Assembly: GCA_001929475.1 (NCBI GenBank)
Contig: LXFE01000167.1
Coordinates: forward strand, 1 to 64,000
From: Neolecta irregularis DAH-3
Lineage: Eukaryota
DNA length: 64,000 nucleotides
Direction: 5' to 3'
Below the pieces are notes generated by a model that did no database searches, was not told the origin of the DNA, and saw nothing but the letters and a program-made list of their open reading frames with translations. Shown here one piece after another: positions 8,066 to 45,357 of this stretch (the stretch's first letter is position 1; the number at the start of each line of letters is the position of its first letter). The translations under genes were made by a program, and so were the position numbers.

Positions 8066-8736
8066 TTTTGTTTATGTATATATGTAAAAACAAAAAATTG
8101 TGTTGTGTTACTTCACAAAAACTAGTAGTTGCTCAGTGTTGGAGCTCCAAGTTGGCACAACTTTCTCACGACCTTAACATAATCAAACTACCACTTTACT
8201 CATCACCATAGACTGGTTTCGAATGGCAATTGATGGCTACCGTGCTCTTAAACCGATTTGAAAGTGAAACACCCGACACCGAAAAGGTCCACAACTCATC
8301 CAATGATGCTCCGCGGACTACGGGAGGGAGAAAAGTACGCAAGAAACATATGAAATAGGCTGAGATCAGGTCCTAGCTTTTAAGAGAAGCCTGAAAGCCC
8401 AGGCTTCGAATTTTCATCTGAGATTAACCAAAAATTATACTGGACATGTTCCAAAATCTAAAGCATGTAGCCTATAATATTCCCCTACTCTGACCAGATC
8501 CAGATATTACAATCAAGTCGTCATCTCACTGTTAGCTCCCGAGTGAGTCAGTTCGAGACAACAGCGGCCTTGGACGCACTAATCACTAAAAGCAAAGGGC
8601 CCAGGGGGTTTCCTGCAAGACAATTCCTCGATGGATTAAACAACCGGGATGAAATCCCTCCAAAGAAACCAGAAACCCCTAAAATAAGATACTCTGGGGT
8701 GATTATTAAGTCCTGTAATCATAAATTAAATTTTAG

Positions 8737-10771: not shown

Positions 10772-12636
10772 TCAAAATTCAAAGAATTCCCGAAAGATGT
10801 TCACATCTGTCCCTGTAATTGCCAACTCCGATAGATCACGACGATCTTGACACATGAACACCCGTCTTAAGGTTTCCCATAAGTTACTTGAAATATTAAC
10901 ACCGCCTGGTACATCGCCTCTCTGGTGTTGTGCGAGGGCTCCAAGTAAATGTTGGGCAGCCTTAATGGTTTCAGAAGATACAAGGTTGCAGGAATATACT
11001 TCTTCATAGCATCCGATGTTGATGCAACTCACACCGAGATTATATCGGGCTCGAACGAAAGACGGGCTGATTTCAAGAGCCTTGTGATAGGCATTAATGG
11101 CCTCTTCACTTCTCCCCGAGTTTGCCAATGTAGCTCCGAGGCGATTCCATAAAAGATGGTCCTATTCATCAATATCGCCCTAATAGATACAAGATATACA
11201 TTCGGTCTACTACTCAAAGCCGCAGTGAAACAGTCGACAGCTTTATCGTAACTCTCGCTACCGTAAAATAGCACACCCAGGCCAACTTGAACGTCTGCAT
11301 CCATCTGAGCACCATTTGGGCTTAATTGTGCAGCATGGATGAATTGAGAGGTGACGCGTTGATGCAGTTGATCTCTACCTTGACCTTTTGGTATTGATGT
11401 CGTTAATGAAGGATATTTGGCAACGATCCAAGACTCCAAGGTCATATATGCAGCAGAATCATATCCTTCGTTCGTATAGCTAACTGCAAGTCCCTGGAGG
11501 ATTAATGAGCGTAATGTTCATACTTCATACCATCATAGCTTGAAGGTTTGTAGACTCAAGATTGGTGGCCTTGTCCAAAGCCCGGATGGCAGGTTCTTCC
11601 TTCTCATTCTGAGCTTGAACTAACCCCAATTGAGTCCATGCTTCAGCTCTACCCATATCCTGTTGCACAGCAGCTTCGAAGCATAGTGCAACTTCGGAAA
11701 GACTCGCACCGCTTTCCATTAACCGTAGACCTTCGGCAAATGGATCGACACGATTCAAATACGGATTGTCGAGTTCGAATTGATAGTCCCCAAGATCAGG
11801 CTTTTCATTGATTGAAAATGCATGAAGATCCTCAATCCCCGAAAACGAGGGGTTATCCTGTTGAATCCCATTCCAGATGCTCTCGAAATCTCCATGAAAC
11901 TGCTGGTTCATAAGTTCATCTTGAGATTCTTCTAAGCCTTCCTGTCTTTCCTGTTGAGATTCTTTCTCTAGAGCATCAAAATGTTCTTCCCAATTCTGAT
12001 CCGTAAGTTCGACCAGTTTTTCTTTTCCTTTCCTTAAGGGTTCATGATAAGAAGGCAGCTGGGTCAGCTGGGATCCGAAGGCGCCTTGGAACGACGGAAG
12101 CATGCGATTTCCCGGCATAAAAGCCTGAGGAGCATAGTTCACTGTTGATGACAAACTGAATTCCTCACGCCAAGCGGGGTTTGAGATTTCGTGCAGAGGC
12201 GACATCGACGGAACTCTTTGACGAGATGCAGACTCCATATGAGCCGCCCTTTCTGGAGGTAGCATATGGCGATCATTTTGAAATTCAGAAGACCATTCTA
12301 TGTTATTAGATAGCGAAGATATCGAAAGCAGTCGTGCCTCGGCCAGTCTGTTGAATCGCCCGGATCTCTCTAGAGATTCCATCAAAGCCAAAAGCTGGTT
12401 TATCTCCGAAGAATAAAATCTGGAATCATGTCAAGCATTTCAAAGCAGCAGGTCGGTACTTGCTGGTCTTGCTGATTTACATTGTGTGGTGCAGACCGGA
12501 AAGATTTGTGGATACTGGTATTCTGAGGAACTAGTCGATCTTGTTGAAGCGAAGCGTCCCTCGCAGCATGCTTTGAGAGCTGGCTTAGCGGATTTGCAGC
12601 AGCTGAACAGGCGGCACCGGAGAATAGATCAGACAT
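10772..12636 (-). CDS. PEX5: Peroxisomal PTS1 receptor Pex5 (5 introns, one GC-AG)
   Basis: N-terminal MSDLFSGAACSAAANPL with the conserved Cys, WxxxF motifs (WSSEF, WREEF, WEEHF), TPRs ending LANSGRSEEAINAYHKALEISPSFVRARYNLGVSCINIG. Confidence 0.96.
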
Positions 12637-12856: not shown

Positions 12857-14417
12857 TCAAAGATGGATAAAGTCCTGGCGAAAGCTTGAATCTGTTTCAG
12901 ATTCTGACATTTGGTCCGAATCCACATCATCAACACTGGAACTTGACTCACTGTCATGGTCAGACTCTTTCTCACTCGAATTGGCATCAGCGCTTTCATC
13001 AACGGAAAGATCTGCCTGAACAGGACTGGCCAGCCATTCGATTGGCCGAATCACATTGTCGATCACCATTGGCATAATGGGATTCCGTCGAAGATTTCGA
13101 GCTCTCGCTACGTGAGGAAGCTTACACTTAGCATTCGGACATGTGCCCTTCCTGTCGAACTCTGGACATTCATGAACATGTCGATCCTTACACTGTGCAC
13201 CTTGTTCACAATAGCCGTTAGTCGCAAAGTCTCGGCAAACAGGAGCTGTAGGGTTGACATGAACATGTGAAAACTTGCATCCTAGATTGGTACAAGTCCC
13301 CCGAGCAAAGAAATTGCACATAGGGACTCGATGAGGTGTTGGAGCATGCGACAGATCACAGGAGGACCCTAAACTGCAAGTTCCCTTCAAGACCCGAGGG
13401 CAAAGAGCCGTTTTGTCAGCATCGTGAATATACTGACATGCCGAGCCTCGAGTGCACGTACCTAGAGAACGACGTTAGAACAATTCTATAGTGCTACGAT
13501 CGATGATCGTTGCAACTGTAACGATTGAATACCGGTCCGCGTAAAGAAACTGCACAATTTGGTTTCTTTATTGTTGAATGAACTGGGTTTTCAGCGTCCG
13601 CCTCTAACGATGTAGCGCACCTTTTTATCTTCCGATTGATAGCGCTAGCAAGAACAAGGTTTCCGCCTTTGCTACGAATATACTCCACGCCAGCCACGGT
13701 AACCCTCCTTGGAGTCAAAGTTGAAGCAGTAGAAGAATCAGAAAGATCAACTTGCCGTTTTTTAGGTTGAGCCATACCTTGAAGTCGAAGCAATTTGCTA
13801 CCACCAGCAGAGACGACATACTTGATTCCGTTTACTGTGACTTGATTTCGCGCTGAGTTTGCGAGATGCAAAGCCAACCTCTGCTTCTCACATTCTTTTT
13901 GATTCTTTTGCGCTGATTCAGTCTTTTGAATCGCCACTCTTCGAGCACTGGACTTTTCTTTGAAGACGTCTTGGCTGATAATTTGAAGATGGCGCTCACG
14001 TTTTTGCACCCAGCCACCTGTAGCAGCAGCAGAAGAATCTGGGGAAAAAGCCAGGTCTTGTTGCATTGCCGCATTCTTATTATTTGAAGTAACCCCTGAA
14101 GAGTTTTTCGTCAATACCAGGGAACGGTGTCGCGATACATTCGCCTGCAAAGGACGAAAGTAAGGTTTCTGCTGATTCATGGATCGTTGGGCTGCAGAGA
14201 TTGTGAGCTTTGGGCTGGAAGGTTACAGAAACGTGCAATGTGGATGGTAATAGCCTTGGTGCGCAATTAATGCAGCAGAAGCAGTAGGATCCTGAGCATG
14301 TTTGTGTCTGTTGATGGCACCTGAAAAGCCTTAGTAGATGGCTGGATCAGACTGAAACATGCCGGCCAGTGAAGCGATATGTCTTTTAAGTTCCTCTTCA
14401 TCGGCTCCAGTCATCAT
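12857..14417 (-). CDS. Tandem CCCH zinc-finger protein, Red5/ZC3H3-like
   Basis: N-terminus EEELKRHIASLAGAINRHKH after a GC-AG intron. Multiple C-x7/8-C-x4/5-C-x3-H fingers at the C-terminus. Confidence 0.8.
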
Positions 14418-14613: not shown

Positions 14614-15779
14614 CTAGGAATGATTAACTTGCATGTTCATAAAGCAAAAGTACTTTTCCTTCCATATCCACGAGCGCCCAGGTTCCTTGTTTCCTTTTTC
14701 TTCTGCCATTCTATATATCAATAGGCGCCGACAACCTGGAGTACCGGTAGTAGTGCGCAGCTGCCTTCTTATCCGTCTTGCAGCCTATGCCGTTGAGGTA
14801 ACAGTATGCTTCGCGGTCAAGATTGGTAGGAACAACGGAAATCAAACCGACTTCAGCCATAGCATCTGCATCACCAAGGCGAGCAGCAACTTCATAGTGT
14901 TGCCTGGCAGCCACCTGATCCCTCTTGACTCCCTGAATGTCATGAGAAAATTACTCCAATTGATGAGTTTGCTCTACCCATCCATTTCTGTACGAATTAC
15001 CCAATTCATATATCGCAAGCGTTAAGGCACCTTTCCCGACTGTTGAACTGAGTGCAGTAATTTCGAAATCAGCGGCACTAGGCATTGGCAAATGTTAAGG
15101 CTTGGGAACTATAAACCTTTGAGCTGCTGCCTTGAGATATAGAAGCGCCTTGTCTGGGTCTGTGCGACATCCCCAACCATGACTAAGGGAATTTTTCAGT
15201 CCCGAAAAAAACAGATAATACCGTAACGAGAGGCCGTATAAAAGCTGCCCAAATGATGATACTCCTTCTCTCGCATTTGCAACTTGTCCAAACAGGCGCG
15301 TCGCCCTTTCTAAATCTAGCTTTTGTTAGCTTTAATTTGATATGGGACTAGCCTCCATGTTCATGGAAACAAATAGCCCTGTTCATCAATTGTTCAATGC
15401 TGAGATATTTGTCTTCTTCCTCCTCTTCACCCAGTCGCTTAAGATTCTCTAGATCTTCTTGCATAAAGGCATTATCGCTTATCACCTCGGATCGATTCAA
15501 TTTGGGCAATACTGAAGGCCCAGGTGAATGTGCAAGTATTGTCGCACGCTTCTCCCAATCCCTTTCTGTATCCCCACCAGACTCCAGACTGTGTGTACGT
15601 GACTTGAAAGACTTTACCAGTTCCGGCTTGGTAAAAATTGTGAATAGCGATCTCCGGTTTCGCATCTTCTTAGACTTGTCTGGTATCGCGATATCGTCCG
15701 GACCCAGGTCATCCTTGGATTTTGATTTTGACTTCGTGATACGGCGGGAGATCTTATTGAAAGGATTGCGGGTTGACAT
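14614..15779 (-). CDS. Sel1-like repeat protein, Dsf2/Nif1 family
   Basis: AICFHEHGDLERAT..., LLYGLSLRHGWGC, YEVAARLGDADAMAEVAYCYLNGIGCKTDKKAAAHYYR, terminal SWIWKEKY. Confidence 0.8.
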
Positions 15780-16167: not shown

Positions 16168-19100
16168 TCAGAATCCATAGCTGAGTAGATCAATCCAGAT
16201 ATTCATGCCTTGGTGAGTTTCTGCTTTAAAAAAATAGGAATTATTGGCCGTATAAACTGCAAAGACATTCACTTTCTAGATCGTCAGTGTAACACTGGCT
16301 TCTAGAATATCTCACTTCTAGAATTGTCTCAAGCTCTCTTCTATTATCTGTTCGAGCCGACTCGATATTGATCATGAACTGGATATTCGTCTCTGCCTTT
16401 GTATCATATATATAAAGGTATGGCCTGCGGAGAACAAGCCACCGTTTAACCCAACTCTCCCGTATTTCGTCAGGCATTAAAAGATATCCTGAAAGAGATA
16501 CCTTACGACTGCAAAATCTTTAGTTTAGATAAAGCAATGTCATCGTACCTCTTGGAAACAAGGTGAGCGATACCGTTAGGCCTCGAAATCAGTGGCGGAA
16601 CAGCTGTGCGCGGGCTTTGAATTGTTGAAGCGCCGGAAGACTTCGGCCTTTCCATGATTGTCTGCTATATCAGAGTAATTCATTTTTAAGATCATACTGC
16701 TCTTTGACGCCTTACGAAAGATTTCCATATTCGTACACATCTTTGGACAAGTATATCTCTTTCTTCTACGGGAGTTTCGGGCAAGGTGATACGACATAAA
16801 TGTTGACGAGTAAACTCGGTCAATATAGCGAATGATGCTTTCTTTCGAAACTCTAAATAGTCTTCAATTAAGGACGTTCCCCTCGGTTTCCAGTCATTGA
16901 GAACCTCATCGCCATTTAGACGCTCATCGCCAGTATTTTTCCGCCATAGATCTTCTATAAATATAACAGGAGGAGGCTTGAGTATGACGCGATAAAGATA
17001 AGTAGATGATCTCAGTCGCCGGGAAGATGATATGAATCGCGATAGTCCAGATGGTGAATGACCACCGCGCGGTCGGATATGTACCGCAAAGTCCAAATTG
17101 AAATTTATCGGCTTAGACACTTTTTCCGAGACTGCAACCCAGGAAAGCGTTAAAATGACTTTCTCGCCGGAGTTAGTGGCTCGATCTAGGTAAGGTGATC
17201 CATGGACCGACGAATCCCAACCAATTATAATAATCGCAGCCATAGAGCCGTCGGAAGAGTATTTGACTGATATTGGAGATATAGAATTGAGATTAATTGA
17301 CTCCACTTGTTCGGTGCATCTCGACCTTCTTCCTTTTGTATCCCATAAACGAATATGGCCGATGCTCAGATTTATAAGATCATTTATAGGAAATTGAAGG
17401 CCAGACTGATGACTTAAGGTGAGAGCCAAGCGTCTTTGTGTGCCCTGATGAAGGTAGAATACCCCATCATCAGCTTGATTGCTGGTAATGACGTTTGTTG
17501 ACTTGTACTTTCCGTTAGTTGCGAGTTCCTTGATCTCTAATCGGGCCATCACATCGTGTCCTTCCTCTTTCTGATAACATGATTCTGGACGCCGCTCTTC
17601 GTCACTCGGATTAGGCAACCCATTTCCTTGGCGCATCTCATCCCATGATGACAATTTTTCGAGATGAAGATTTTTAACACGAGCAAATAATGCTAACCGA
17701 AGAGTTCGAGTGTCGAACCTTCCAGTATCCTCTACCATAGCTTGGATGGTATGGCGACTCTCAAACCTGATCGAATCTAATGCGCCCTTTCTAGCCGAAC
17801 TTGATGAACTCGCAATCACAAAATCAGAATATGAATTCGTAAGGCTTCTGAGATAGCACTGCATATGTACCTCTTCGAATTCGTTAGGAATCAGACCATA
17901 GATTTTACTGATTGATAGATCAATGGTACAGATCTGAGTTTTCTGCATATCTTGCAGAGTTGATTGACTGACGATTGTTATTGCTGGTACAATTGACAAC
18001 TCAACCATAGCGACGACCTGATATGTAAATGGAGAAATCAAAGGTAGTCGCATATCATGCGAGTTTTCAAGCGGGAGTAGGATTGGGATGTCAGTATACC
18101 CAACGAGTGTGAAAGCAGGTGTGGATCGCTCAAAAGCAGAAAATTCACTTTTGAAATGTTGCGCATACTCCGGACGATCTTTATACTGCCGCATTTTGCG
18201 CATTTTGTCAATCCAACCATGTAATTGTGCAATAGACCAAACGTATATGCTGTTCTTGCGATAATCCATAACTCGAACCAAGACACAACATTCATTTCGT
18301 ATACAGTCATCGATTTCAGAGCATATGATATCTTGGTCAAACCGCGACACCGGTACACGTCCTTCGGATATAGCAAATTGAAAGGAAAGTCGCTGACGCA
18401 GCTGATTTGCCAGAATCTGAGCTTCCTTTAAGAAAACGGCTTCTTCGAATAGAATTTCTGCGATACGGACGGTGCAAATTTTTCGCCATTTCGTTGCGAT
18501 CGGTCGAGCAATTTCTTTCTCTCGTACTGTTAGACGTGGAAGTTGACCTTTGTTGATATCTTCAAGTCGGGCCTCAAATTCTAATCTTTGTTCCTCTAAA
18601 TTTCGCTCCATTTCCTCGCGCATATCTATCAATTGCTCAAACATATCCTTCTTTTCCGCAATCTGCAGCCTTTCAATGTCTGTATTTCTAAGTTCCTCAT
18701 CCGGAAAGATTGGTAATGTAATTGTTGTCTCCAAAGAAAACTCGTCGTAGGTGCTTTGAGAGCGATAATTCTCTCGAAGAGCATGGGAAGAAGTAACAGA
18801 ATCATCATCGTCCGCAAGCGAATCCAGACGACTATCTGACCTGCGCTTTCGAAGCGTTCGGACTCTTTGCAAGTCTTCAAATAATTGATCCAGTTCGTCG
18901 TCTTTAAGAGTATTGATATTGGAATTTGGACCAAGCATTGACAGCGCAGCCTCTCTACGAGCGAAAAACCAATCGGGCTGGACAGAGGGATCGACATCAG
19001 AATTTGGAGGGGATGTTCGTTGCGGTGAATCAGAATCTATGTCATGTTCTGTGATGACGTTTCGAAGTGGACTCATGGTAGAATAACTTTGACTGATAGA

Positions 19101-21248
19101 ATGACGGACTTTACTTCTCTCAGCTCGAGCTTCCTCGGGATGATTGAATCTAAATATATGAAAATCTCCTAAAATGATGCGATAGCCGGATCGTAAACGA
19201 CGTTTCTGTGTACATCGCAATCCATTGACCATGACATTAGCTCCTTCATGAGGAAATAGAGTAACAATCCCATCAAGATTATCGAAATGACAATGTTCAC
19301 TCTTGATTTTAGAACCACTCAGGCGTATTTCCATTTCTGAGATGCTAGTAACATTTCCAACTCGGGTTATTCCACTTCGTATATTGTAGACTAAACATTC
19401 GGCAAGCAGTGGGTCATCGCTCAGATTAACCAAATGCGGCATCTTCTTGGGTGTGCTATAGGTCAAGCAGATTCTCTATAAAATATACCTCAGTCCAATG
19501 AAACCTTTCTCTATGCTAATTCCGAGATCCTCGAGCGCCTTCTCTCGCTCTTTCTGAATAATTTGAGTTTTCAGAAGCTTTTCTTCCCAAGTCTGATTTA
19601 ATTCTTTCATGAGTTTCTCTGAAGTTTCCATTTGTTCGGCAATTTCGGCTTTCGTGACTTTTCGAACAGTTCCGTCGATAGTTTGGAATGATATAACTTG
19701 CATTTCTGGTGATACCTGCATATCAAAGTTATCCTCGACAGACCCAGAGGCATATCGGCTTCGTAGAGCTGCCAATTCTTCTTTCAATTCTCGAATAACT
19801 TTAGCATTCGGATCCTCGTTGACAACTGCATGATTTCTGATCCTTTTCGCTGAATCTGCATAACGAAGCGTAGAAAGAGTTTCGTCGTAGTTGATCAAAG
19901 CAGGCGATAAGGCTGCAATGATAGTGGTTTTGCTACACTTTAAAAAACAATCAAGCCAAGGGTAAAGCGAACCTATTTCCTCCAAGACTGTCTTTAAGGA
20001 GCCAAGTGAGAACAGAATCACGATAAGGTACAAGAATTTCCTTCTTCTTTTTACCTCCGCTGGACTGGTCAGCCAATGCGGCGATGACCCGGCCGAGAGT
20101 CGATAAGGAACGGTTGATTTCGGCACCTTCTTTCAATCGCGCACCCTAACAAGTTTCAAGTCTGAGACTTTGATGATGGTACCTTTGCGCCTGTCGAATT
20201 GGCTCGTTCCGAACCCGCCAAATCAACTAGATTGATCCGGGAGACTTTCTCTGTATCCATGTTGGTTTCGGCATCGTGCCAGACCTGAGAGAGGGTAAGA
20301 GTGAAGACTGCATGTGAACGGCCTAGAGCATCGGTACTTTACTGCCGCAAGAAGGTTTACTTGAGGTTTCGTTCATCTTGGTAGCGGCCACTGTACGAGC
20401 TTTATTTCCCTCATCCATTAAATTCTCTATTTCTTCGAAAGAATTGACGGCCAGTTTGGACTATCTCCATTAGACGGATCGACAAATTGCTATTTACCAA
20501 ATCCTCAACGTACGGACCAAGCGCAGGATGTTCACGAACTTTCAAATTGCCTTTGTTGGTTGGGTTTAAGAGATCACGGACTTTCTCTGAGAGGTCAGTT
20601 ATGAATCCCATTTTTGCCTCACCATTGTAAATTTCCATGTAAGAAACTTCTACTGAAGCCTGGTAATCGACACTTGCCTTCAAGCGTCTGAGAGTAAGCA
20701 TTTACTCAATCCAATTACAAGTTCATACTTCCTGTTGAAAATCTCCATACAGATTCGCGGAATAATCCCCTTTTCTTCTCCGTATCCCATCATAGAATAT
20801 GACTTTCCGCTCCCGGTTTGACCATATGCAACTATGCAATTGTTGAATCCTTGGAATGCATTCTCCAAAAGCGACACTCCCAAATCATTGAACAATACAT
20901 CTTGAGAAGCTAAATGTCAAGTCAATCTAATTTCTCAACAGATAATACCATAATGAGGATCTTCCCTGTTGAAACTCCAATAAGACTTATCAAAAGTGAA
21001 AGATTTAGATGTTTCTGGATGGTCTTTAGTTTTGGGATCCGGAATCTCCCCCGCGTCGAGAATGGTTTGGTCTCCTTGCATCTGAATGCAACACTGAGCT
21101 CCAAGTGCAATTTCTAGATCACCATTAATGTCTCTGGCTACGATCCAAGAGATACCTCGTGAATTGAGTGGTCTAACTCGCACAACTGGAAATCAATATG
21201 TACCAAGAACGATCCGACTGGCATACCAACTTGGATATTGCTACTCAT
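16168..21248 (-). CDS. Kinesin-3 (Unc-104/KIF1A type): motor, FHA, DUF3694-like and PH domains (about 14 introns)
   Basis: [64 protein letters not shown] + FHA, C-terminal PH ([16 protein letters not shown]). Confidence 0.96.
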
Positions 21249-21665
21249 ATTGAGTTCTAAATTTCACTAAACGCAATTCAAAGAGTGACTAAAGCGACAA
21301 AAACAAGTGGAGAAATCTGCACTGAGATAATACCGGCCCCTTTTAAAGCGGGAAGCAAACGCCCAAAACGTATGCCAAGTCGTCAAACTCGAGTTTGTAG
21401 TCAATCCTCTACAACCATCACCGTATGACAATATCACGAATGTCTGAGATTGCAGCAGATCGACTAGATATAATCTGGTGGAAATTTAGAGAAGGGCTGG
21501 GGTCACAAATTTAAGCGATTTACTCCGATAGCTTCGATCCAACGGTATATGCAGATGCTTCGCCTGGGCTGACTGACAGTCCCATAAGCCGCCCTGTACA
21601 ATGTGTTATTCAATCTAACTGGAAAATTGAATACTAATGTGCAACGAAATGGATTACGGTCAACT

Positions 21666-24600
21666 CTACGGTATGCCAAACATCGATTTGAGATGTTTGA
21701 CGAGGCCCCATTCCTCCTTGGTGACATCATTTCGATAAAACTCCTTGAGTGTATCAATCGATTTACGACTGATTAATGAGTAGAGAACATCCGATTCATC
21801 CAGATGTCGTCCAAATAAAGGCTGACTTGAGCCTTCTATTTTAATGGCAACTCCTGCTCCGGCTTGGCCTTTCTTGACAGAATCTACCGTCTTGTGATTC
21901 ACTTCCATGCTTACTCTATAGTAAGGATCAGGAAGTAAGACAAAACTAGTGACTTACATCCTACCGAGCTCCATTGTAATCTTTTCATGAGTAACAGGGT
22001 CTATTTTTAGCGCACATATGGGTGTGCCGACCTTTAGCACACCTTCTGCTACATCAACGCCAAGAACGATTGGGTCCTTTTTATTGAAAACAGCAAGGGT
22101 TTTCAAAATACATGGGAATACCACCTGGTGAGCTGATTCCTTACGCCGAAGTTCCGTAATTTCTTTTTGATAGGCGGTAAAAGCATCGAATAGGTGGTAA
22201 ATGATATTTGCCGAAAATATCTTCACCCCAACTTCTTCCGCTAAAACTTCTGCGTCCTTGTCAACTTTGACATCGAAACACAATATAACTGCAAGCCTAA
22301 AATTCTGTCAAAATACGGATGACAGCCGTCATTTCATACTCTTTGGCTTTCTCGAGCATCGTTCCAGCTCTCATAATATCCTTCTTGTATACAGGACCAA
22401 TGTTAATCGCCGAAACTGGTATTTTACTGGTTCTCAGGAATTCGAGCAAAGCTTCGAGAGAACCAAGCGTTGATGCTTGAACGCATACACCACGTCCAGA
22501 AGTATCAATACGACTCATCAAATCTTGTAGGTCCTCCATGACTTCATCCTTCAAGTCTTCTTCGTCATCATCAGGTCCAACTACAAGCAATCGAGACCCG
22601 GCAATAGCTTTTTCGAGATCGTGAGCGGTAATCTTGACTCCCAAAGCAGCCTTGACTTCTTTGTGGTGGACGTAAGTTCCCTTAACTCGCATTTCTTTGA
22701 GAGGTTGAGGAGTCAGTAACGCACGGACATTCGTTGCAATTGCTCCATTTAGACCACAAAGCACAATACGATCACCTTCACGTAGGACACCGTTCGAAAG
22801 AACTACATCTATCGTCGTCCCGAGACCTTCAATAACTTTTACTTCAAGGACAGTGCACTCGAGTTCGGATAAGTACATCAATGTATCGCTCATACGATTT
22901 TGAGTGAGGCTGACAAGAAGCATCAGCATATCGGGTACGCCTTCGCCTGTAATAGCCGATGTTGGCACCAAAGAAACATTTTTTGCCATATTCTTGTTTT
23001 CCCAATAAACCTCTGAATTGAGACCTTGCTCAGCCAAAGCGACTTTGGTGTCAAGGAGACGCTTCTCGAACTCGTTCCTAACGGCTTGCGTCTGTTTGGA
23101 TAGAGATTCGCGAACAGCACAGTCAGGAGTTGCTTGCCACAGGTAAAGACGATCGATCTGAGATGTAAGAGCCAGAGTGAACGATGGTATATACTTTATT
23201 CAAAGCGACAATGAAGGGTGTCTTTTTATCTCTCAACAATCGTAATGATTCGATCGTCTGAGGTTCGAGACCGTGCATGATATCGATGACAAGGATTGCG
23301 ATATTGCACAACGATGAGCCACGAGTTCGAAGGTTCGTAAAAGATTCATGTCCCGGGGTATCAATGACCAGAAGACCAGGAACTTTATACTCTTGTTTCC
23401 CGTCCTAAAGCTTCGTCAGAACCCTATCTACTGCACGAACCTTATTGAGACAAAAGGTCTTCTTCTTGATTACATCCATTGGGAAATACGTTGCACCGAT
23501 TTGTTGAGTAATACCACCAGCTTCACCTTCTTGGACGTTCGTCTGACGGATCTTGTCGAGAAGTTTAGTTTTACCAGTATCGACATGGCCGAGAATACAG
23601 CATATGGGCGAGCGTAGATCATCTTTCGAGCGTGCTGCCAATGCTTCCTGGTGACGTTTCTGCTGTTAGAAGCATTCCTCAATGCAGACAAACCTCCCTG
23701 CGATCAGCAGCTTCGACCTTCCGCTGAGCTTCCATCTTCCGTGTTGTGGATTGTAGTACTTCGTCATCTTCAGAATTAGTACCGCTCTCGTCTTCATTTC
23801 CATCCTGGCCCTCGTCCTCGTCTTCACTGTGTGACTTCTCTTCATCGATATTATCGAGTGCTTTGGATAGAATAGGTTTTAAGGATTTCTCATTATCCGA
23901 GGGAATATCCCATGAATCTTTCACGTCATCATCACTCTGTATGCCAGCTTCCCAATCGTCTGCAACAATTATTTCATCCTGTTCGACCGGTTGTGCTATG
24001 ACAATGGCCTCGGACTGCTCGGGCGGGTTGGCAGCTTCTATCGCTATTTCTTTCACAGCAATTTCCGTTTGCTTAGCTCTATCACCCTTCTTTTTCCGCG
24101 AACCATAGGCAGGTCGCCTAGGCCTCAAATCCGCCGAATCTGCTTGTTCAAGACCAGCCACAATTATATTTCCTGCCTCAAGCATTTGTTCTTTTCGCCG
24201 TTCAGCCATCTTTTGTTGCTCTTTTTGTCTTTTCGTAAGATATTTTCCGGATGCTTTCAATTGCTCCTTCTTGGCCTAAACTTGTAAGACACGACTTTAT
24301 GTACTGAAGCATATCCTCTCGCGCTCCTTCTTGAGTTGTTTCTGTTCCTCGATCCGCTGAGCATCCTCGGCGGCCTTGCGTTCTTCCTCTTCTATACGCC
24401 TGATATTAGTTCATATCTTTCAGAAAGACGTCCAATTTCTCTTCTGCTTCGGCGCGCAGTCTCGCTTCCTCTGCCGCCCTTTGCTGCTCCACAAGTTTAC
24501 GCAGAGCACCGACAGGGGCTTTGGACTTTTTTGGAATAGGCTCGGTAGCCTTAGTCTTCTTCTTCTTCTTCTTCCTAGAGCATTAACAAAAACTGCGGTG

Positions 24601-25188
24601 ATATGACACACTTGGTTGAGGCTGTTGTACCTTCCTGTTCATCCCTAGAGGCACCCTCTTCATTTTCGGGTCTGTTGTTGTCAGTAATTTCAGACCCTGG
24701 CTCAGAAGCTTCTGTCTTCCGAGTCTCTCCCTTGACCTCTGTTATATATTTGTCGATTGGATCGCTTCTTGTAATCAAAGAATTCTTTTTCTCCATCTAT
24801 GCAAATCTCAATGTCTTGAAGAAAATTAACATACCTGTTCATTTTTCTTCGCCTTTTCTCTCTCCTTTTCCTTTTTCGATTTAATCCGAAATTCCGAACT
24901 CTCATCGCCATTTTGAATATTTGAGTGGGTTTCATCTTCAGATACGGGCGAGGATGCCTCTTCCAGTCGCTGTTGTTTCTTCGCTTTGCCCTTCTTAGAT
25001 CCTTTCTTTAAGGTTGACATGAGGCCTCCAAAGTCATCATCAAGTCGATCGGTGTCTTCTTGATGGTGCAAAATCGCGGCATTTGAATCAATGGGCCCTT
25101 TAGGTGTTTCTTGAAAAGCATCGTGGCCAAGATCCTCATCCCACCGATCCTCCAGGGCCTTCTTTCCCTTGGTTCCTTGTTTACCCAT
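21666..25188 (-). CDS. FUN12: Translation initiation factor eIF5B (about 9 introns, two non-canonical)
   Basis: [70 protein letters not shown]-terminal [14 protein letters not shown]. Confidence 0.97.
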
Positions 25189-27713: not shown

Positions 27714-28399
27714 TTAGAAGCCTCTACCAACGCCCGACCAAACTCCCTTTATTAGTGCATCATCGCGTACATTTAGAAGTCCAGTTGATTTCTTTGTTTT
27801 GTTAGATTCTTCCACGGCAGCAGATATATCAGCAATATTTGTCTCTACTACCATCCCACCAGAAATAATTTCAGAGAGGACATGATGAACTTCTTCAAAA
27901 TTGAATATCTGAGCTTTTAGTTAATGCTGTTACGATGAATTTACCAGATCCAGCTCACAAACATTTTCAAATGAGCGATCTAGACTCTCCACGAAAACCT
28001 TTTTGTTTGAGTGAGCTACAGCTACAGCTTTGGCTTGTATTGTACCTGTATAAGATCCAGAACAGCCAGTTCGCATTCGCTCTCGTCTACCACAAACACA
28101 AAGTAAAGGGTGGCATAATGACGATATATCACTCGGACGTCTTCCCCTCCAATCAATTTACTTCCTTCCAAGAAGTTGCATGCTGATGCTAAGCGAGCTG
28201 AAACTAAGCCAAAAATCTCTTCAATCAACGATTTTTGTGTCTCAACGCTCTGAGAACGAGATCAGTCGAGCCTTGAAGGACAATTGAAGTACAATTGGTG
28301 TATAAAATTTTGTCAAGCGCGGTTGCCCGGATGTGTTGACTATTAAATATTAGTTGGAAGCTTGTAGGAATAAGCACGGATAATCACTGCATTAATCAT
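27714..28399 (-). CDS. APS3: AP-3 adaptor complex sigma subunit (4 introns)
   Basis: MINAVIILNTSGQPRLTKFY, ACNFLEG, VIYRHYATLYFVFVVDESECELAVLDLIQVFVESLDRSFENVCELDL. Confidence 0.92.
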
Positions 28400-36032: not shown

Positions 36033-39000
36033 ATGTCTTCCAATTCGTACTCGGATGAATATCGTCCTAAACAACCCGGACTCTCAAATTCTAAAATGAC
36101 CGCTTCAATGACATCTAGCATTTCCGACACAACTACATTTGGCCGTGACTTGACGATCGATCTGCGCGATGAACCAGTGGGATCCATGTCTATTTCTCCC
36201 AGTGGACGGGACGTGGTCCTTGCTTCGTATTTATCCTTGTTCAAGGTTTAAACTCTAATAAAGTAGGCGCAAAGGGTTGTATATAATCGATCTCGACAAT
36301 CCGTATGATCCACCGCGATTTCTGCGTCATCATACAACATGGGAAGTCGCCGATGTTCAATGGTCACCACATGCAAGTCGTCCCGAATACGTCGTCTCGA
36401 CATCCAATCAAAAAGCATGTGTATGGAATTTGTCTCGTCCATCAAGTAGAGCGATTGAACATGTTCTTCACGGTCACACGAGAGCAATCACAGATATCAA
36501 TTGGAGTGCATTTCATCCAGAGATGCTGGCTACCTGTGCCGTCGACAGTTTTATTAATTGTTGGGATTTACGAATACCTAGGGTTCCTGTACAGCAGTTT
36601 AGTGGACGGAGAGCAGCGGGCACACAGGTTAAATGGAATAGAGCCAATGTGCATGTTTTGGCGAGCAGTCATGATAACATTTTGCATATTTGGGATGATA
36701 GGGTACCTAATCTCTATTTAAACACAGCTTGATGAGAAGAAAGGTGCTCAACCAGTAAAATCGATCATTGCGCATGACGCTCGTATTTATGGAATCGATT
36801 GGAATAGAACGCGGGAGACGGGTATAGTTACTTGTTCATCGGACAAGTGTATTAAATTCTGGGATTATGGACAAAAAGAAGATGGCCCCGAGAGGATTAT
36901 TCGTACTGAATTTCCGCTTTTGCGAGCTCGTCATGTACCGTTTGGATGGGGAGTGATGGTGATGCCGCAGCGGGGAAGTCGAGATTTGTATATGTGGGAT
37001 AGAAGAGCTAGTGGAGACATCACCGGCGACCCTGTCGCAAAATTCTCTGGTCACAACGATGGAGTTCGAGAGGTGTGTTCTATAACTATTTTGCTAAGCC
37101 TAGTTTTTGTGGAGAATTCGAGGGGGAGAGCAAGTTGATCGGGATACACGAGAATTTCAACTAGTGTCTTGGGGGAAAGACCAGATGCTACGAATTAGAC
37201 CACTGGACAAGTCTATTCTTGCCGTTGGTAAAAATTCGATATGATTGTTTAAAATGTAGGCCATTGGACACAAGGAAAATGAACCTCCTCGGTTTCGGAA
37301 TACTCGTCTAGGGGCAGTTTACCAGTCATTCAAGATTGAACCACCTGATGAACAAGTCCGAACGACTCCGGTCGTCTTACCAAAGCGAGGCCGATTGTTT
37401 AAAAATAATACAGGGGCAAGTGTATCTATGACTAAATCTCGAGGTCAAACTCAAGAAGTGAGTCCTTTACTCTGGATGCGTGGAGTTCGAATGGGAAAAG
37501 CAGAAGATTGGGAAGGTCCCGAGAACTTTGGAGAAGAAATCTCTTGGTTTGAAATGCGATTTCCTCAAGTTAAGTTTGAAAAGGTAAAAGCTCTTCATAT
37601 CTTTTCTGACCAGAGATCAACGTTGCTGGTCGGACTTGTAGGATTGTGTTGCAAGGACCAGTGGGAGTTTGTTCTAAAGTTGTTTGTCTCCGGTTAAATG
37701 TTCAAGTACCGCCTGAATATCCCAAAGCGATGCCACGATTTGAAATCGAGCCGAGCGATGAATTAACAAAGGAGATGCATATCGAATTGATCAACAAGCT
37801 GTACAAAACGGCGGCAGGGAGCATTGAACAGGGTCGTCCATGCATCGAAGCGTGTGTCAAGAGTTTATTGGGGGAGAAAGCAGATGCAATTGAGAGCGAG
37901 GAAGAGGAATCCAGTAGTGATGAGAGTGCCGGTGATGTTCTTCCCGAAGCAAAAGTAGTCGTGCAAAGTTTTCCTCTTCCCAAGAAATGTGCCGCCATTT
38001 TTTGCGGGAATGGTACTAGTTACAAGTATAAAGCTAACTTTAGGAAAACTAGTTTGTTTTTTCCCGAAAAAGGAGACGGAGACATCGACAGGTCATCGTA
38101 CGAAACGGTCGGTGCTTACGCAACAGCGACAATTGGCGAGTTCTGATTTCATAAGCGAGTCTGCGACGTTTTCAGAAGAGGAGACGGACAGTGAAGGGGA
38201 TTTAGCCAAGGCGGGCACACTTACGATCCACGACCTTCCGCAGCCGCGAAAGCTGCCTACGTCTATTGAGGAGATTTCGTGGCTGCGTCGACGACCTGAA
38301 AAAACGATGGTTTCTATTTATGACTCTGGGGTTTATTTGCAAGAAAAGGAGTACCTGTCGCGGGAGTATATAATAGATGGACCAGCAGTGGACGTGTGCC
38401 GGCACAATGCTGGGATAGCGCAAAAGTATGGCCATTATGATATTGAGCAAGTTTGGAATTTGAGCGAGATGATTTTGAGGAAAAGGTTGCCTGGGGAGAT
38501 AGAACTGGGGATGGGGATAGCGGAGGAGGGTGGTGCTGTGCAATGGGGCAGCCATCCTCTTGGATGCGAGGTTGTGCAACAAATGTAGACTTTGTGTGAA
38601 CGATGCTGATTGCAGGTTTTCCTACTTTGAACGACTGGGGAATGTGCAGATGCTCGCCATGTTGTCGTGCGTGCTTATTCCAGGCAAGGGGCGGGATTCA
38701 GGGCGGGTTGCTGATCGGTACACGTTCCGATTCAGCTCGCCGAGCGCGGCACTTGTAGGGAATGAGCAGGAGGAAACCGAACCACCCAGCTCCGAGCGAC
38801 AGCGGCGGTCTGGGACGGGGAGCGTGCACATTTCGCGGACGAGCAGCCGGCACACGTCACCGACGACGCCGAAGCGGTCAAGTCCGTGGACGACGTTTGG
38901 CAGCCGGTATGAGGAGGCTGGGGTGACGATAAACATTGGGATGGAGAATGTAGAATGGTTTGAGCCGGGCGGGGAGACTGGGATGGAGAATGCAGAATGG

Positions 39001-39397
39001 TTGGAGCCGAGCGGGGAGGTTGGGAGCAAGTACCGGCGGTTCCGGGCAGAGTACAGCGAGATGCTGTACCGGTGGGGGCAGTACAGCCGGCGGGCGGAGA
39101 TGCTCAAGATTGACGGGGGAGACGACGAGGAGCGTGGGTTTGGGCGGCTCAAGGGGCGGCGGAATAGCCGGGAGGGTTTGGAGATAGTGCGGGCGAGCGG
39201 GGCGGGGCGGTGTGTGGTGTGCCTGCTGCGAATCCAGGGTGGGTTGTTATATACAATCATTGATAGGCTGACGGGCAGGGCTGGGCACAGTGTGTGTGTG
39301 GTGCGGGCACGGGCGGCATGTGGGGTGTGCGGAGGGCGAGTGGGCGATGGCCGAGTGCGCGCTGGGGTGCGGGTGCCGGTGTGAGGGGTTGGGGTAG
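36033..39397 (+). CDS. MTC5: GATOR2/SEACAT subunit WDR59/Sea3/Mtc5 (WD40, RWD, C-terminal RING)
   Basis: SMSISPSGRDVVLAS, WEVADVQWSPH, GHTRAITDINW, CRHNAGIAQKYG, WGSHPLG, NVQMLAMLSCV. After the last intron: CVVC...CVWCGHGRHVGC...CALGCGCRC. Confidence 0.92.
38941..39024 (+). repeat. 42-bp in-frame tandem duplication inside WDR59
   Basis: MENVEWFEPGGETG followed by MENAEWLEPSGEVG. Confidence 0.9.
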
Positions 39398-39509
39398 GGG
39401 TTAGACAAAGAGGGTTAGTGTAGGGTTAGGCGAAGAGGGTTAGTGTAGGGTTAGGCAAAGAGGGCTATGTATGGTTAGTATGGGGTTAGACAAAGAGGGC
39501 TAGCGTTAG
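39398..39509 (+). repeat. Degenerate tandem array of ~25-bp units, each with two telomere-like GGGTTAG cores
   Basis: AGGGTTAGTGTAGGGTTAGGC(G/A)AAG occurs twice near-perfectly, with further degenerate copies. It fills most of the WDR59-bZIP intergenic gap. Confidence 0.88.
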
Positions 39510-39516
39510 ATTTGCG

Positions 39517-39522
39517 CACGTG
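39517..39522. promoter_or_regulatory. CACGTG E-box (Cbf1-type bHLH site), about 43 nt upstream of the bZIP ATG
   Basis: Exact palindrome. Function inferred. Confidence 0.5.
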
Positions 39523-39564
39523 GCCTGCCTCGCTTGCAGTTCTCCCCAATACCAAACACTCCCC

Positions 39565-39963
39565 ATGGACATCCACGACTTTATCGGCAGCCTCAACCAG
39601 CTCCCACCCCTCACAGACTCCGCTCTTCCCCCGCTAAACAGCTCGGACATCGACAACCCTTCCCTCGACTTTTGGGCAAATACAGACTTTGCCCTCCCCG
39701 CCCTCGACTCCCCCCCTTTTCTTCCCCCGGAAAAGAAGAAACAGTCCCCCTCCTCAAGAACCCCCGCAGAGGAAGACCGCCGCAAGCGCAACACTGCTGC
39801 CTCCGCCCGCTTCAGAGTGAAAAAGAAACAGCGAGAGGCCCATCTAGAGTCCGCCGCAAAGGAAATGACTGACCGCATCGCCCTCCTCGAGTCCCGCGTC
39901 AAAGAGCTCGAGCTCGAAAACAAGTGGCTCAAAGATCTCTTGATCCAAAAAGATCAGAAATAG
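39565..39963 (+). CDS. Small bZIP transcription factor, MetR/Cys-3/Zip1 sulfur-regulator type (132 aa, no intron)
   Basis: EEDRRKRNTAASARFRVKKKQREAHLE...LESRVKELELENKWLKDLL, plus an N-terminal LDFWANTDF motif. Confidence 0.88.
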   Translation: MDIHDFIGSLNQLPPLTDSALPPLNSSDIDNPSLDFWANTDFALPALDSPPFLPPEKKKQSPSSRTPAEEDRRKRNTAASARFRVKKKQREAHLESAAKEMTDRIALLESRVKELELENKWLKDLLIQKDQK

Positions 39964-39995
39964 TCTTTTGTTTGTATATTTATGTGTAATTATAG

Positions 39996-41762
39996 TCAGT
40001 GTCTTCCCCAAAGCGACCCAAACAGCCCTCTTTCCCTCTCCGTGTCCCCTTTATCTCCCTCATACTGGATAAAATTCAACGCAATGTCCAAAAATATAGG
40101 CTTCATCGGAATAGGCTCAATCTTGGGTTCAAGCAAAACAAGTCGACTCTCGTTGATATCCTTGGGATACACCCCGAGGCGATCGTAAAGCGGTGCCTGC
40201 TCGTTACTTTGCCTTGTCCAATGGTGCCTCACCTCAACTTCCCCTCCAGAACTCTCCTCCAACACAAGCAAAGCTCGCATTCGTGCTGCTTCTCCACAAA
40301 TCTTTGTTTCTGCCCCTTCCATATCGGTATTGTGCTTCAATATCGGATCCGTGCTTCCCATAAAAGCTGAATACCTCTCTTTTGCTTGACAAAGATATTG
40401 TTTCGCCCTCTCAAAAAGGGCTAGCGCTTCACGTCGTGTCGCAGGTGCATCATACGATCGCGCAATGGCAGCACATCTTTTCTCAGCCCCGCCAAAAAAG
40501 CACATACCGTAAATGCTTGTAAAACATCGTTTTTCCTTCAAGCACTCCCGCTAACGAAAAATCACCAGCTACACCAGGGAGTAAATCACACTGTTCAATA
40601 CTCGAGATGATCGTTTCATATAACTTGACAACCTTCCTCTGCGTCCTCTGCGTCCTCCGAGTCGGGGATGTTAACAAATCCTCCACTAGAAGCAAATCTC
40701 GTTCAATTCGCTTCGAAATCCCATAATAGCTTGTATATGTAAGCGCAATTTGTAGTCGCTGTATCTTTTCTTCGTTTTGAAGAGATCTCTAGACTCTTAG
40801 CGGATTCATGTTTATACGCACCTCTTCCTCTTCAACTGCCCGTTGCACAGCATCTTGGGCTTCCGACAATGCTAAAAGCAGCCCGTCAAACGCTTGCGCT
40901 CTCGCCTTGGGACCCAAAGGTTCCATACATTCCACCTCGTATTGCGCCTTTTGCACTCTTGCAAGCGTCATTCCCACATCAGCATTATCCACTTGAACAG
41001 TCTTTCCCCTCCACGTAATCTCTGACACACTCGCAATCATCTCGCTCTCATCTAGAGGCTCAAGCACCCGTGGATCAAGCCTATCAATTCGACAAACAAC
41101 ATCTTTATCCTCGATTCCAAAATGCTCGGCTATTCCACTAATATCCCGCGAAGGAAGACCAAGTACATACGCACAATACCGAATATTGGGTTCCAACATT
41201 GATATCATACTCTTTACATTCTCACAAGACTCCAATTTATCGAGCGCAACTAGAATATTCCGACAATTACTAAACTCGCGCAACGAATCTTCTAGAGATC
41301 CCTTGACCGATTTATGCTGTGCGGAAAAATCGAGTAGGTAAGCCGATACTTGAATCACCGAAATATCATCTGAAAAACATTGTTCAACTAGTTCTTTTAA
41401 ATGTTTTGCGTGATATACTGCTTTTTGTAATTTTCGCACTACTCGCGATGGACGTTCCACAACGGGTTTTAAATCCATTGCGTAAGCCCAGCACCTCTCT
41501 GCGTCCAACAAGACAATCTCCAAGAACCTAGATCGCTTGGTGGAATGTTTAATGAGCGAGTATACCGTTTATCTTGGATAACTTTGTCAGCTGTAATTAA
41601 AAGTCTTTTTGCATCACGGCTTTTGACTTGAAGTGATTTCCTCAATGCTGCCCCTTTTCGGCCGCAGTAATGTCTGTATTTACGATAATCTTGTAATTGT
41701 AATCCATATGAATTCCTCGCTTCCGAGGTCAAGGACAGAACGTGAAAAAATGGCGGGGGCAT
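39996..41762 (-). CDS. SRP68: Signal recognition particle subunit SRP68 (4 introns)
   Basis: ARNSYGLQLQDYRKYRHYC, LLDAERCWAYAMDLK, LEPNIRYCAY, PKIEPIPMKPIFLDIALNFI, GLFGSLWGR. Confidence 0.93.
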
Positions 41763-44192: not shown

Positions 44193-45357
44193 ATGGATGC
44201 CTTCAAAAAGCTCAATCTAGACAGCGTCCAAACCCAGTTTTCGGGATTTGCTCCGTTTGCACAGCGCGCAAGGCAGTATGTCGGCGAAAAGATTGGTACT
44301 GCCGATGATGTGGTACTACTCTACAAATAGCAGAACCAACCAAAGAACGCGTACTGACTTATTCTAGACAGAGCTTCCAAAGGAATATCTCGATCTGGAA
44401 AAACGCGTAGATAACCTGCGACTTACCCATCAAAAGCTTTTGGCCATCACGTATGTTATTATCACTTCCGGCCTTTGATGGAATTATAAGAATAAAATGC
44501 TGACTTATAAGCTCCCAATACCAAAATGAAGGCTACGATTATCCTCCGAATCTCGTACGCACATCGTGCGCTTGGATTCTGACAATTTTAGCGAGAGTCA
44601 TTTGTTGATCTTGGCAAAACTATCAGCGGAAAGGTTCAAAGCTTGGCCGCAGCTCAAAGTGCCCAGGAGGCTCAGGAGGCTCTCGTTCGATCAACACCTA
44701 AAGGCCCACCAAAGACTCTAAACCATGCCCTTGCCCGTGCATCCCTAGCTGCTTCCGAGTCTATTGGCGGACAGGATTCGTTTTCTACAGCGCTTCAGAA
44801 ATATGCTGTCGCGCAACAGAAAGGCTAGACTTGATATGGCCACTATATACTGACAAACAGTCGGCGATGCTCGATTAGCTCAAGATTTGTTGATCACATC
44901 GCGATTCAATTCAGCTATCGCAGCTAGCTTGAACACCAACCTGCAATTTGCCCAGCGAGCGCGACGATCTGTTCAGAATGCGCGATTGACTCTTGATTCT
45001 GCCAAGAGTGTTGCCAAATCAGCTCGACCAGATAGAAAGAATGATGCTCGAATGGACGTCGAAAAAGCCGAAGACGACTTCGTTGCTGCTGTGGAAGAAG
45101 CCATGCAGGTTTTCCACGCTGCTCTTGATTCTCCCGAGCCGGTATGAACTCTCATCTCATTCTTTGCTGATCGCCAGCTACGAAATCTGGCTGACCTGGC
45201 CAAGGCCCAGTTGCAATTCCATAAAGAAACTACGAACGTATGTGATCATACTGTTATCTCATTAAAACAATAGATTCTTTCTGAAGTTGTTCCAGAAATC
45301 GAGGAGTTGCAAAACATCCAAGAAACTCACTTTCGAAACACCAGAAATGATCCTTAG
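44193..45357 (+). CDS. GVP36: BAR-domain protein Gvp36-like (6 introns, one GC-AG)
   Basis: TELPKEYLDLEKRVDNLR, YQNEGYDYPPNLRESF, PKTLNHALARAS, VQNARLTLD, EKAEDDFVAAVEEA. Confidence 0.88.

Follow-up and report, generated by a model that had tools for sequence, protein, structure and literature searches.

The window analysed here comprises the first 64,000 nucleotides (nt) of contig LXFE01000167.1 from Neolecta irregularis DAH-3 (assembly GCA_001929475.1). Its minus strand carries a gene for the translation factor eIF5B, with 10 exons and nine introns of 34-43 nt in the coding region (Table 1). The analysis confirms that two consecutive introns of this gene are non-canonical, a GG-AG intron and an AT-AG intron, and that they lie on either side of a conserved 85-nt exon.

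The eIF5B gene and its two unusual introns

The gene model combines the joints of a contig described below with junctions taken from homologues, using tblastn and reading of the sequence. Spliced by script, it yields 3180 nt of codons, equal to 1060 amino acids, plus a stop codon, and contains no internal stop. Between 23900 and 24800 (minus strand), the sequence reads as Lys/Glu-rich coding sequence for the N-terminal part of eIF5B, interrupted by short stretches with in-frame stops. Three Pfam families found in the gene, GTP_EFTU, GTP_EFTU_D2 and IF-2, place its product in the eIF5B/IF2 family. Specifically, in searches with single eIF5B exons, GTP_EFTU passes its cut-off (26.6 bits against 26.5), IF-2 reaches Pfam's own cut-off, and GTP_EFTU_D2 is matched with an E-value of 2.2e-06 at 28.5 bits, below its cut-off of 30.3 bits. 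The exon encoding the GTPase domain shares 76-79% of its residues with the fungal eIF5Bs that follow from P0029 onwards in the list of matches, and its top match, P0028, shows 67% identity.

With slashes marking the exon borders, the upstream intron of the pair reads ...GAGAAATT/GGACGT...CTAATATCAG/GCGTATA on the minus strand (whole intron GGACGTCTTTCTGAAAGATATGAACTAATATCAG), and the downstream intron reads ...GAGAGG/ATATGC...CTTACAAGTTTAG/GCCAAG (whole intron ATATGCTTCAGTACATAAAGTCGTGTCTTACAAGTTTAG). These are the coordinates and minus-strand bases that an initial annotation, made from the sequence, had given for the pair. The 5' dinucleotides, GG at 24433-24432 and AT at 24314-24313, depart from the GT or GC of U2-type introns, while the 3' ends, CAG and TAG, have the usual AG after a pyrimidine. 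As the initial annotation had also noted, each intron contains an in-frame TAA, at which the open reading frames 24406..24582 and 24297..24410 terminate. The 34-nt intron shifts the reading frame and the 39-nt intron preserves it.

Evidence for removal of both introns

A 9106-nt contig from sequencing run X2 aligns to 23600-25138 in six pieces with five joints and 0 other letters over 1.5 kb of exons. The joints omit 23660-23693 (34 nt), 24276-24314 (39 nt), 24399-24432 (34 nt), 24575-24611 (37 nt) and 24797-24834 (38 nt), and three of the five have GT..AG ends on the minus strand. As placed, the joint at 24399-24432 has the ends GA..GG, which become GG..AG (24400-24433) after a shift of 1 nt; the joint at 24276-24314 is AT..AG as placed and GA..TA after such a shift. 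The GG-AG (24433..24400) and AT-AG (24314..24276) placements are preferred because all 20 introns that we take as verified in this region (16171-25188, minus strand) end in AG. This set, which recurs below, consists of the nine eIF5B introns, five supported by the contig and four by homology, and the 11 introns in the public model of the neighbouring kinesin gene.

The contig is treated as transcript-derived, because it lacks five pieces of intron size that bear branch-like motifs and whose loss restores the frame, as is characteristic of complementary DNA (cDNA). Both odd introns are thus missing from what we infer to be mature messenger RNA (mRNA), and their flanking exons are joined with 0 mismatches. 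The alternative is that X2 is a DNA run and that the joined form exists as DNA, through a retrocopy or programmed DNA elimination. Its starting point is the label 'DNA?' that a tool attached to X2, as a joined form found in a DNA run would have to be present as DNA. All five skipped pieces, however, measure 34-39 nt, restore the frame and carry branch-like motifs, and three of them run from GT to AG, which is a spliceosomal signature. Moreover, X2 comprises 20,248 contig records with some 11-12 million letters altogether, which is transcriptome-like beside a genome of 14.5 Mb. A joined form at the DNA level is therefore scarcely credible.

The genomic letters themselves recur in a contig from run X1, which shows 0 differences from the window at a word depth of 426. 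Since X1 may be the window's own source, it is not independent, and the agreement shows only that a separate assembly of what may be identical reads yields the same bases. This circumstance leaves some room for an artefact, be it an assembly or sequencing error, a minor allele in the window with GT in the expressed allele, or a template switch by reverse transcriptase. The only DNA run that contains the stretch is X1, rare variants are dropped from contigs, and template switching has been named as a source of false non-canonical junctions. Against this, the depth of 426 comes with no second X1 contig on the stretch, and the cDNA-like contig has no exon differences at all, when alleles that differ at two donors and at no exon position would be odd. 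The microhomology of 1 nt per joint is too little for template switching, and since the plus-strand ends of the removed pieces are not GT..AG either, an antisense transcript offers no explanation. The removed pieces, in turn, carry branch motifs, in-frame stops and ends in a pyrimidine followed by AG (YAG), and their removal fits the homologues to the residue. We consider an artefact of any of these kinds very improbable. The view of the initial annotation that the odd donors belong to two real, consecutive non-canonical introns and are not sequence errors is thereby borne out by the exact contig joins together with the homologue alignments.

Specifically, when fungal eIF5Bs were aligned to the window with tblastn, all five alignments ran up to ...KKERER, opened a gap of 13 residues that coincides exactly with the 39-nt stretch, and resumed at AKKEQLK. 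A 99-residue region of the cDNA model and of two canonical alternatives was also compared with 147 eIF5B proteins from the protein searches. Matches were obtained for 143 of them, and the cDNA model scored best in 140, a model joining GT 24429 to AG 24387 in 3 and an exon-skipping model in 0 (mean scores 87.9, 79.3 and 53.3 bits, respectively). Both junctions were spanned by 138 of the 142 high-scoring segment pairs, 127 of which were free of gaps within 4 residues of both, and the junction EEKL/RIEE created at the GG-AG intron agrees with the homologues. The spliced product thus fits the conserved eIF5B segment, as had been proposed. In summary of what is observed directly, the two stretches are absent from the cDNA-like contig, taking them out re-establishes the reading frame along with the conserved protein, and the genomic bases are as read.

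Canonical splice sites do exist nearby. The initial annotation had placed the surrounding GT dinucleotides in the wrong phase, which does not hold as worded, as three canonical in-phase options can be listed: GT 24429 with AG 24387 (43 nt), GT 24429 with AG 24276 (154 nt, removing the 85-nt exon with the frame kept) and GT 24304 with AG 24254 (51 nt). What stands is that the X2 contig uses none of the three, and that the two which were scored, GT 24429-AG 24387 and GT 24429-AG 24276, fit the homologues less well. Skipping or re-phasing of the exon through canonical sites, which that annotation had named as grounds for abandoning its reading, is likewise not seen in the contig. A further canonical pair, GT 24429-AG 24400 (30 nt) with GT 24304-AG 24276 (29 nt), was rejected because the two together shift the frame into a stop. 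Listing canonical alternatives is in itself not decisive, since 33 and 17 in-phase GT/GC options exist even for the contig-supported odd introns. As a separate observation from sequence, excision of the 154 nt at 24429-24276 (minus strand) may give an in-frame isoform that lacks 27 residues.

Table 1. Features of the eIF5B gene in the window, with the basis of each assignment
Feature	Position	Strand	Basis
eIF5B coding region	21666..25188	-	X2 joints, homologue junctions and Pfam
Intron GT-AG, 38 nt, donor GTATGT	24797..24834	-	X2 contig joint
Intron GT-AG, 37 nt, donor GTGTGT	24575..24611	-	X2 joint, cut read 1 place further right
141-nt exon upstream of the GG-AG intron, ends ...GAGAAATT	24434..24574	-	X2 piece, placed at 24433-24573 with 1-nt ambiguity, 0 other letters
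Intron GG..AG, 34 nt, donor GGACGT, phase 2	24400..24433	-	X2 skip; alternative placement 24399-24432 is GA..GG
Putative branch-site motif CTAAT, branch A 6 nt from intron 3' end	24405..24409	-	Sequence
85-nt exon encoding (L) + 28 residues	24315..24399	-	X2 piece 24315-24398; aligns in 5/5 homologues
Intron AT..AG, 39 nt, donor ATATGC, phase 0	24276..24314	-	X2 skip; alternative placement 24277-24315 is GA..TA
Putative branch-site motif CTTAC, branch A 9 nt from intron 3' end	24284..24288	-	Sequence
582-nt exon downstream of the AT-AG intron, starts GCCAAGAAGGAG (AKKEQLK...)	23694..24275	-	X2 piece, 0 other letters
Intron GT-AG, 34 nt, donor GTTTGT	23660..23693	-	X2 contig joint
Intron GT-AG, 36 nt	23440..23405	-	tblastn of fungal eIF5Bs and sequence reading; outside X2 aligned part
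Intron GT-AG, 37 nt	23194..23158	-	tblastn of fungal eIF5Bs and sequence reading; outside X2 aligned part
Intron GT-AG, 43 nt	22339..22297	-	tblastn and continuous IF-2 profile positions across the junction; outside X2 aligned part
Intron GT-AG, 42 nt	21957..21916	-	tblastn of fungal eIF5Bs and sequence reading; outside X2 aligned part

How the two introns may be recognised

The normal introns of this region provide the frame in which the odd pair can be understood. All 20 verified introns measure 33-43 nt, and the 11 introns of the public kinesin model (33-41 nt) are all GT-AG; with 34 and 39 nt, the two odd introns are of typical length. Donors are weakly conserved: the commonest bases are A at +3 (14/20), T at +4 (10/20) and G at +5 (14/20). 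A branch-like motif (CTAAC, CTAAT, CTGAC, TTGAC, TTAAT or CTTAC) lies near the 3' end; judged by eye, its distance is 6-11 nt in all nine introns of eIF5B. The CTTAC of the AT-AG intron also stands near the 3' end of the canonical introns 23194..23158 and 21957..21916 of eIF5B and 20728..20688 of the kinesin gene, and the CTAAT of the GG-AG intron is the predicted branch motif in many other predicted introns of the window. CTTAC, a frequent branch-like motif here, differs from the usual fungal CTRAY.

The odd donors are also close to normal ones, as GGACGT is one base away from GTACGT and ATATGC one base away from GTATGC. A dynamic-programming gene finder of our own, which in its refined run recovers 17 of the 20 known introns and predicts 165 in total, proposes the donors GTATGC (three introns), GTACGC, GTACGA and GTACGT elsewhere in the window; among these, only GTACGA (16548) lies in an independently supported model. 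Since GTACGT and GTATGC are both predicted elsewhere, each odd donor is a single substitution removed from a predicted normal donor. Set against the U1-complementary consensus, the two odd donors agree with it at 5 of 10 positions each, inside the range of 4-7 seen for the 18 GT donors, so that 5' splice sites are weak in this region in general.

The available data are compatible with a model in which both are ordinary, very short U2-type introns that carry one point-mutated 5' dinucleotide each (GGACGT and ATATGC) and are nevertheless removed accurately, and we regard this as the probable explanation. Recognition would then draw on features held in common with the canonical neighbours, namely the tightly fixed intron length of 33-43 nt, a branch-site motif that closely precedes the terminal YAG, and the bases at donor positions +3 to +6. 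The putative branch sites, CTAAT at 6 nt and CTTAC at 9 nt from the 3' end, are of the kind that the canonical neighbours have.

The exon between the two introns may contribute as well. It consists of purines to 72.9% and contains 14.1 GAR triplets (GAA or GAG) per 100 nt, levels that only 0.21% and 0.11%, respectively, of 1882 background exon windows from the rest of the window attain. Purine-rich GAR runs are classic exonic splicing enhancers. It is therefore plausible from the composition of the exon that it lets both flanking introns be recognised in spite of their defective 5' ends, and an enhancer in this position would provide a common cause for the tolerance of two weak donors side by side. 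A bolder version of this model holds that the U2 spliceosome of Neolecta, for which length, branch site and YAG would be the main marks of its ultra-short introns, accepts A at +1 together with a 3' AG, as well as G at +2, without any editing, and that the enhancer in the GAR-rich exon enables both to be tolerated together, which would amount to exon-centred compensation in a fungus. We consider this full version rather unlikely, though far from negligible. Should it be true, introns of this sort would occur in a share of Neolecta genes, which the public annotation would lack or model wrongly.

Several points weigh against the model of accurately spliced, point-mutated U2-type introns. On the contig alone, the placements GA..GG and GA..TA are possible, given the 1-nt ambiguity at each joint. 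No run is recorded as RNA, and the reading of X2 as cDNA is our own, set against a tool label that is itself a guess. Contigs, furthermore, are blind to rare alleles, to retained introns and to how efficiently an intron is spliced. That the GAR-rich exon acts as an enhancer is conjectural, and the two canonical introns just upstream sit in similarly charged coding sequence; the exon is for this reason better seen as a permissive condition than as the cause. Yeast genetics indicates that an A at +1 paired with a 3' G should hinder the second catalytic step, which makes an unaided U2-type AT-AG intron mechanistically awkward. A scan of the window with Rfam found 0 families, spliceosomal RNAs included.

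A rival reading is that the AT-AG intron is a U12-type intron, removed by the minor spliceosome, or a relic of one. It has the AT..AG termini of a recognised non-canonical U12 subtype, its donor ATATGCTT agrees with the U12 consensus ATATCCTT at 7 of 8 positions, a branch motif lies near the 3' end, and a pyrimidine tract is absent. The one mismatch, however, replaces C by G at +5, a core position of the donor /RTATCCTT, and the branch motif, GTCTTAC at 9 nt, differs from a TCCTTAAC-like motif placed 10-15 nt from the 3' end. The CTTAC within it serves canonical GT-AG introns of the eIF5B and kinesin genes at the same distance. The resemblance of the donor is explained by its origin, as a single base separates ATATGC from GTATGC, the predicted normal donor of three other introns in the window. 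In addition, a survey of more than 3000 genomes reported that neither Ascomycota nor Basidiomycota contain convincing minor introns and that most minor small nuclear RNAs (snRNAs) have been lost there. A U12-type origin is accordingly extremely unlikely.

A further rival, raised as an alternative in the initial annotation, is adenosine-to-inosine (A-to-I) editing of the pre-mRNA, which would turn the AT donor into IT, read as GT, before splicing. There is precedent in the human genes C14orf37, NUP210 and CRYZL1, where genomic AT donors spliced to AG acceptors have been reported with consistent A>G mismatches, and sexual-stage A-to-I mRNA editing is reported to occur in filamentous ascomycetes. 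In contrast to the human edited sites, the context in Neolecta is unfavourable for fungal editing: the base at -1 is G (AGG/AUAUGC), whereas a strong preference for U at -1 and for hairpin loops is reported for fungi (PMC11156358). The A lies in a stem of the predicted minimum-free-energy fold, and the region folds no better than shuffled sequences (z +1.30, with 184 of 200 shuffles at least as stable). For the Tad3-Ame1 interaction, on which editing depends, an origin in Sordariomycetes is reported, and Neolecta belongs to Taphrinomycotina. Editing of this type could also not repair the GG donor, for which a second mechanism would still be required. We thus hold editing to be highly unlikely, and the point-mutated U2-type introns remain the preferred reading for both members of the pair.

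Frequency, known cases and neighbouring genes

Published data describe the setting in which the pair occurs. The Neolecta genome paper reports 14.5 Mb at 44% GC, with which the GC content of the window agrees, and states that fruiting-body DNA and RNA were sequenced. According to a later study, 1211 Neolecta orthologues contain 4202 introns, which makes the genome intron-rich. The main text of the earlier genome paper has none of the terms intron, splice, splicing, RNA-seq, transcriptome and gene model, and its Supplementary Methods and tables may contain intron statistics and the annotation pipeline; none of the papers listed by full-text literature searches describes Neolecta splice signals.

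Within the window, the gene-finder predictions were tallied for the 99 introns of at most 50 nt in which both flanking exon scores are at least 4, after 66 poorly flanked predictions had been dropped. Their donors are 85 GT, 6 GC, 3 GG, 2 GA, 1 AT, 1 TT and 1 AC, and the eIF5B pair accounts for two of the eight that are neither GT nor GC. The TT donor at 37570 has a GT donor sitting 1 nt upstream, and the GA-AG intron 13501..13462 is disfavoured because a 55-nt GT-AG intron (13516..13462) reproduces the F-x5-C spacing of the homologues. The remaining predictions, GG at 27878 and 56922, AC at 59623 and GA at 59767, fall in sequence that is of low complexity or scores weakly, and are candidates only.

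GC-AG introns, in turn, may be comparatively common. A 37-nt GC-AG intron with the donor GCTAGA at 44824-44860 (plus strand), in a BAR_2 (Gvp36-like) gene, has no in-phase GT alternative, and its junction is supported by BAR_2 Pfam positions that run from 160 in the upstream exon to 164 in the downstream exon. Five more are predicted at 8463-8497 (plus strand) and at 12420-12463, 14192-14236, 15316-15352 and 61475-61509 (minus strand). If these six among the 99 well-flanked predictions of our own gene finder are real, the share would be several times the usual fungal 1-2%.

Both classes represented in the eIF5B pair are already known, and rare, in fungi and humans, to which Neolecta adds two examples. 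In the hand-curated annotation of Ganoderma lingzhi, Table 1 of that study lists 20 GG-AG and 21 AT-AG introns beside 89,855 GT-AG introns, or about 0.02% each. At such rates, an adjacent pair would, by rough inference, be expected far less than once among the roughly 19,000 introns of Neolecta, a figure derived from the published gene count and intron density. Therefore, either the rate in Neolecta is higher or the two introns are not independent. The GG-AG intron of human CPSF3, the AT-AG intron of human ACTR10 and the Ganoderma cases are reported to have the same dinucleotides, with a single mismatch to GT-AG in a U2-like context, and the AT of ACTR10 is reported to be recently derived from GT. 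Unlike in these cases, the two classes adjoin in Neolecta around one 85-nt exon, and the introns are only 34 and 39 nt long. The human CPSF3 GG-AG site is reported to be testis-specific and 76% of human non-canonical sites to be alternative; in Neolecta, an essential translation factor hosts the pair, and the assembled form is the joined one. The adjacency, the essential gene, the ultra-short introns and an apparently unedited AT-AG intron together make the case mildly unusual.

A possible model for a spliceosome that is tolerant at +1 and +2 is offered by Oikopleura dioica and Eurytemora affinis, whose compact genomes have GA-AG introns, in which likewise the donor is not GT and the acceptor is the normal AG. 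These species are reported to contain thousands of GA-AG introns in a conserved AG/GAA context, and for one of them GA-AG makes up a reported 3.2% of supported splice-site combinations, with minor non-canonical combinations reaching about 10% overall. In contrast, neither the gene-finder predictions nor the homologues yielded a verified non-GT/GC donor in the window outside eIF5B, and the kinesin introns, as noted, are uniformly GT-AG.

The pair has implications beyond this gene. Provided that the AT-AG intron is of U2 type, unedited and constitutively spliced, and its essential gene single-copy, it would be a natural test of the rule that the first G of an intron and its 3' G pair in the second step, and also of the extent to which other signals make up for a defect in introns of about 35 nt. 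The pair gives concrete grounds for a junction census that admits non-canonical sites in an early-diverging, intron-rich ascomycete. For annotation, predictors restricted to GT and GC cannot model eIF5B correctly and would truncate, split or drop it, or skip its conserved exon. Protein searches with pieces of eIF5B, which covered only proteins longer than the query, returned no Neolecta eIF5B, and the same type of search did return the Neolecta kinesin and CCCH proteins for their genes. The public eIF5B model may be absent, fragmented or beyond the range of lengths that was searched, and the two odd introns are a possible reason. This result and an outlier intron of 100 nt in the public CCCH model hint at mis-modelling of the kind that a tolerant spliceosome would bring about.

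The CCCH zinc-finger protein in question (P0268, 407 amino acids) matches exactly in two exons on 14180..12860 (minus strand). The intron of the public model, 13532..13433, is GT-AG and stands out with its 100 nt against 33-43 nt elsewhere; it deletes most of the first finger (CTRGSACQ of CTRGSACQYIHD), where 81 of 143 relatives have C-x8-C-x5-C-x3-H. Among the shorter options, the 55-nt GT-AG intron already mentioned fits the homologue spacing best, and the other is the 40-nt GA-AG intron 13501..13462. The window thereby holds a second public gene model that is distorted by the choice of intron.

On the minus strand, as eIF5B itself, a kinesin-3 (unc-104-like) gene at 16171-21186 follows about 480 nt after the eIF5B stop. 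A search with one of its exons returned 'Kinesin-like protein unc-104 [Neolecta irregularis DAH-3]' (P0148), whose residues 8-1541 match exactly on 21186..16171. Together with the exact CCCH match, this identifies the window as DNA of N. irregularis (Ascomycota, Taphrinomycotina) or of a source identical to it. With its 9106 nt, the X2 contig is long enough to reach this gene, which suggests overlapping or read-through transcripts. ARAGORN found 0 tRNAs in the window. Further along, 39386-39478 holds 3.7 copies of a 25-nt tandem unit that contains GGGTTA twice and has a telomere-like look, within a GC-rich stretch (55.7% GC, 38001-40000) with long overlapping open reading frames on both strands.

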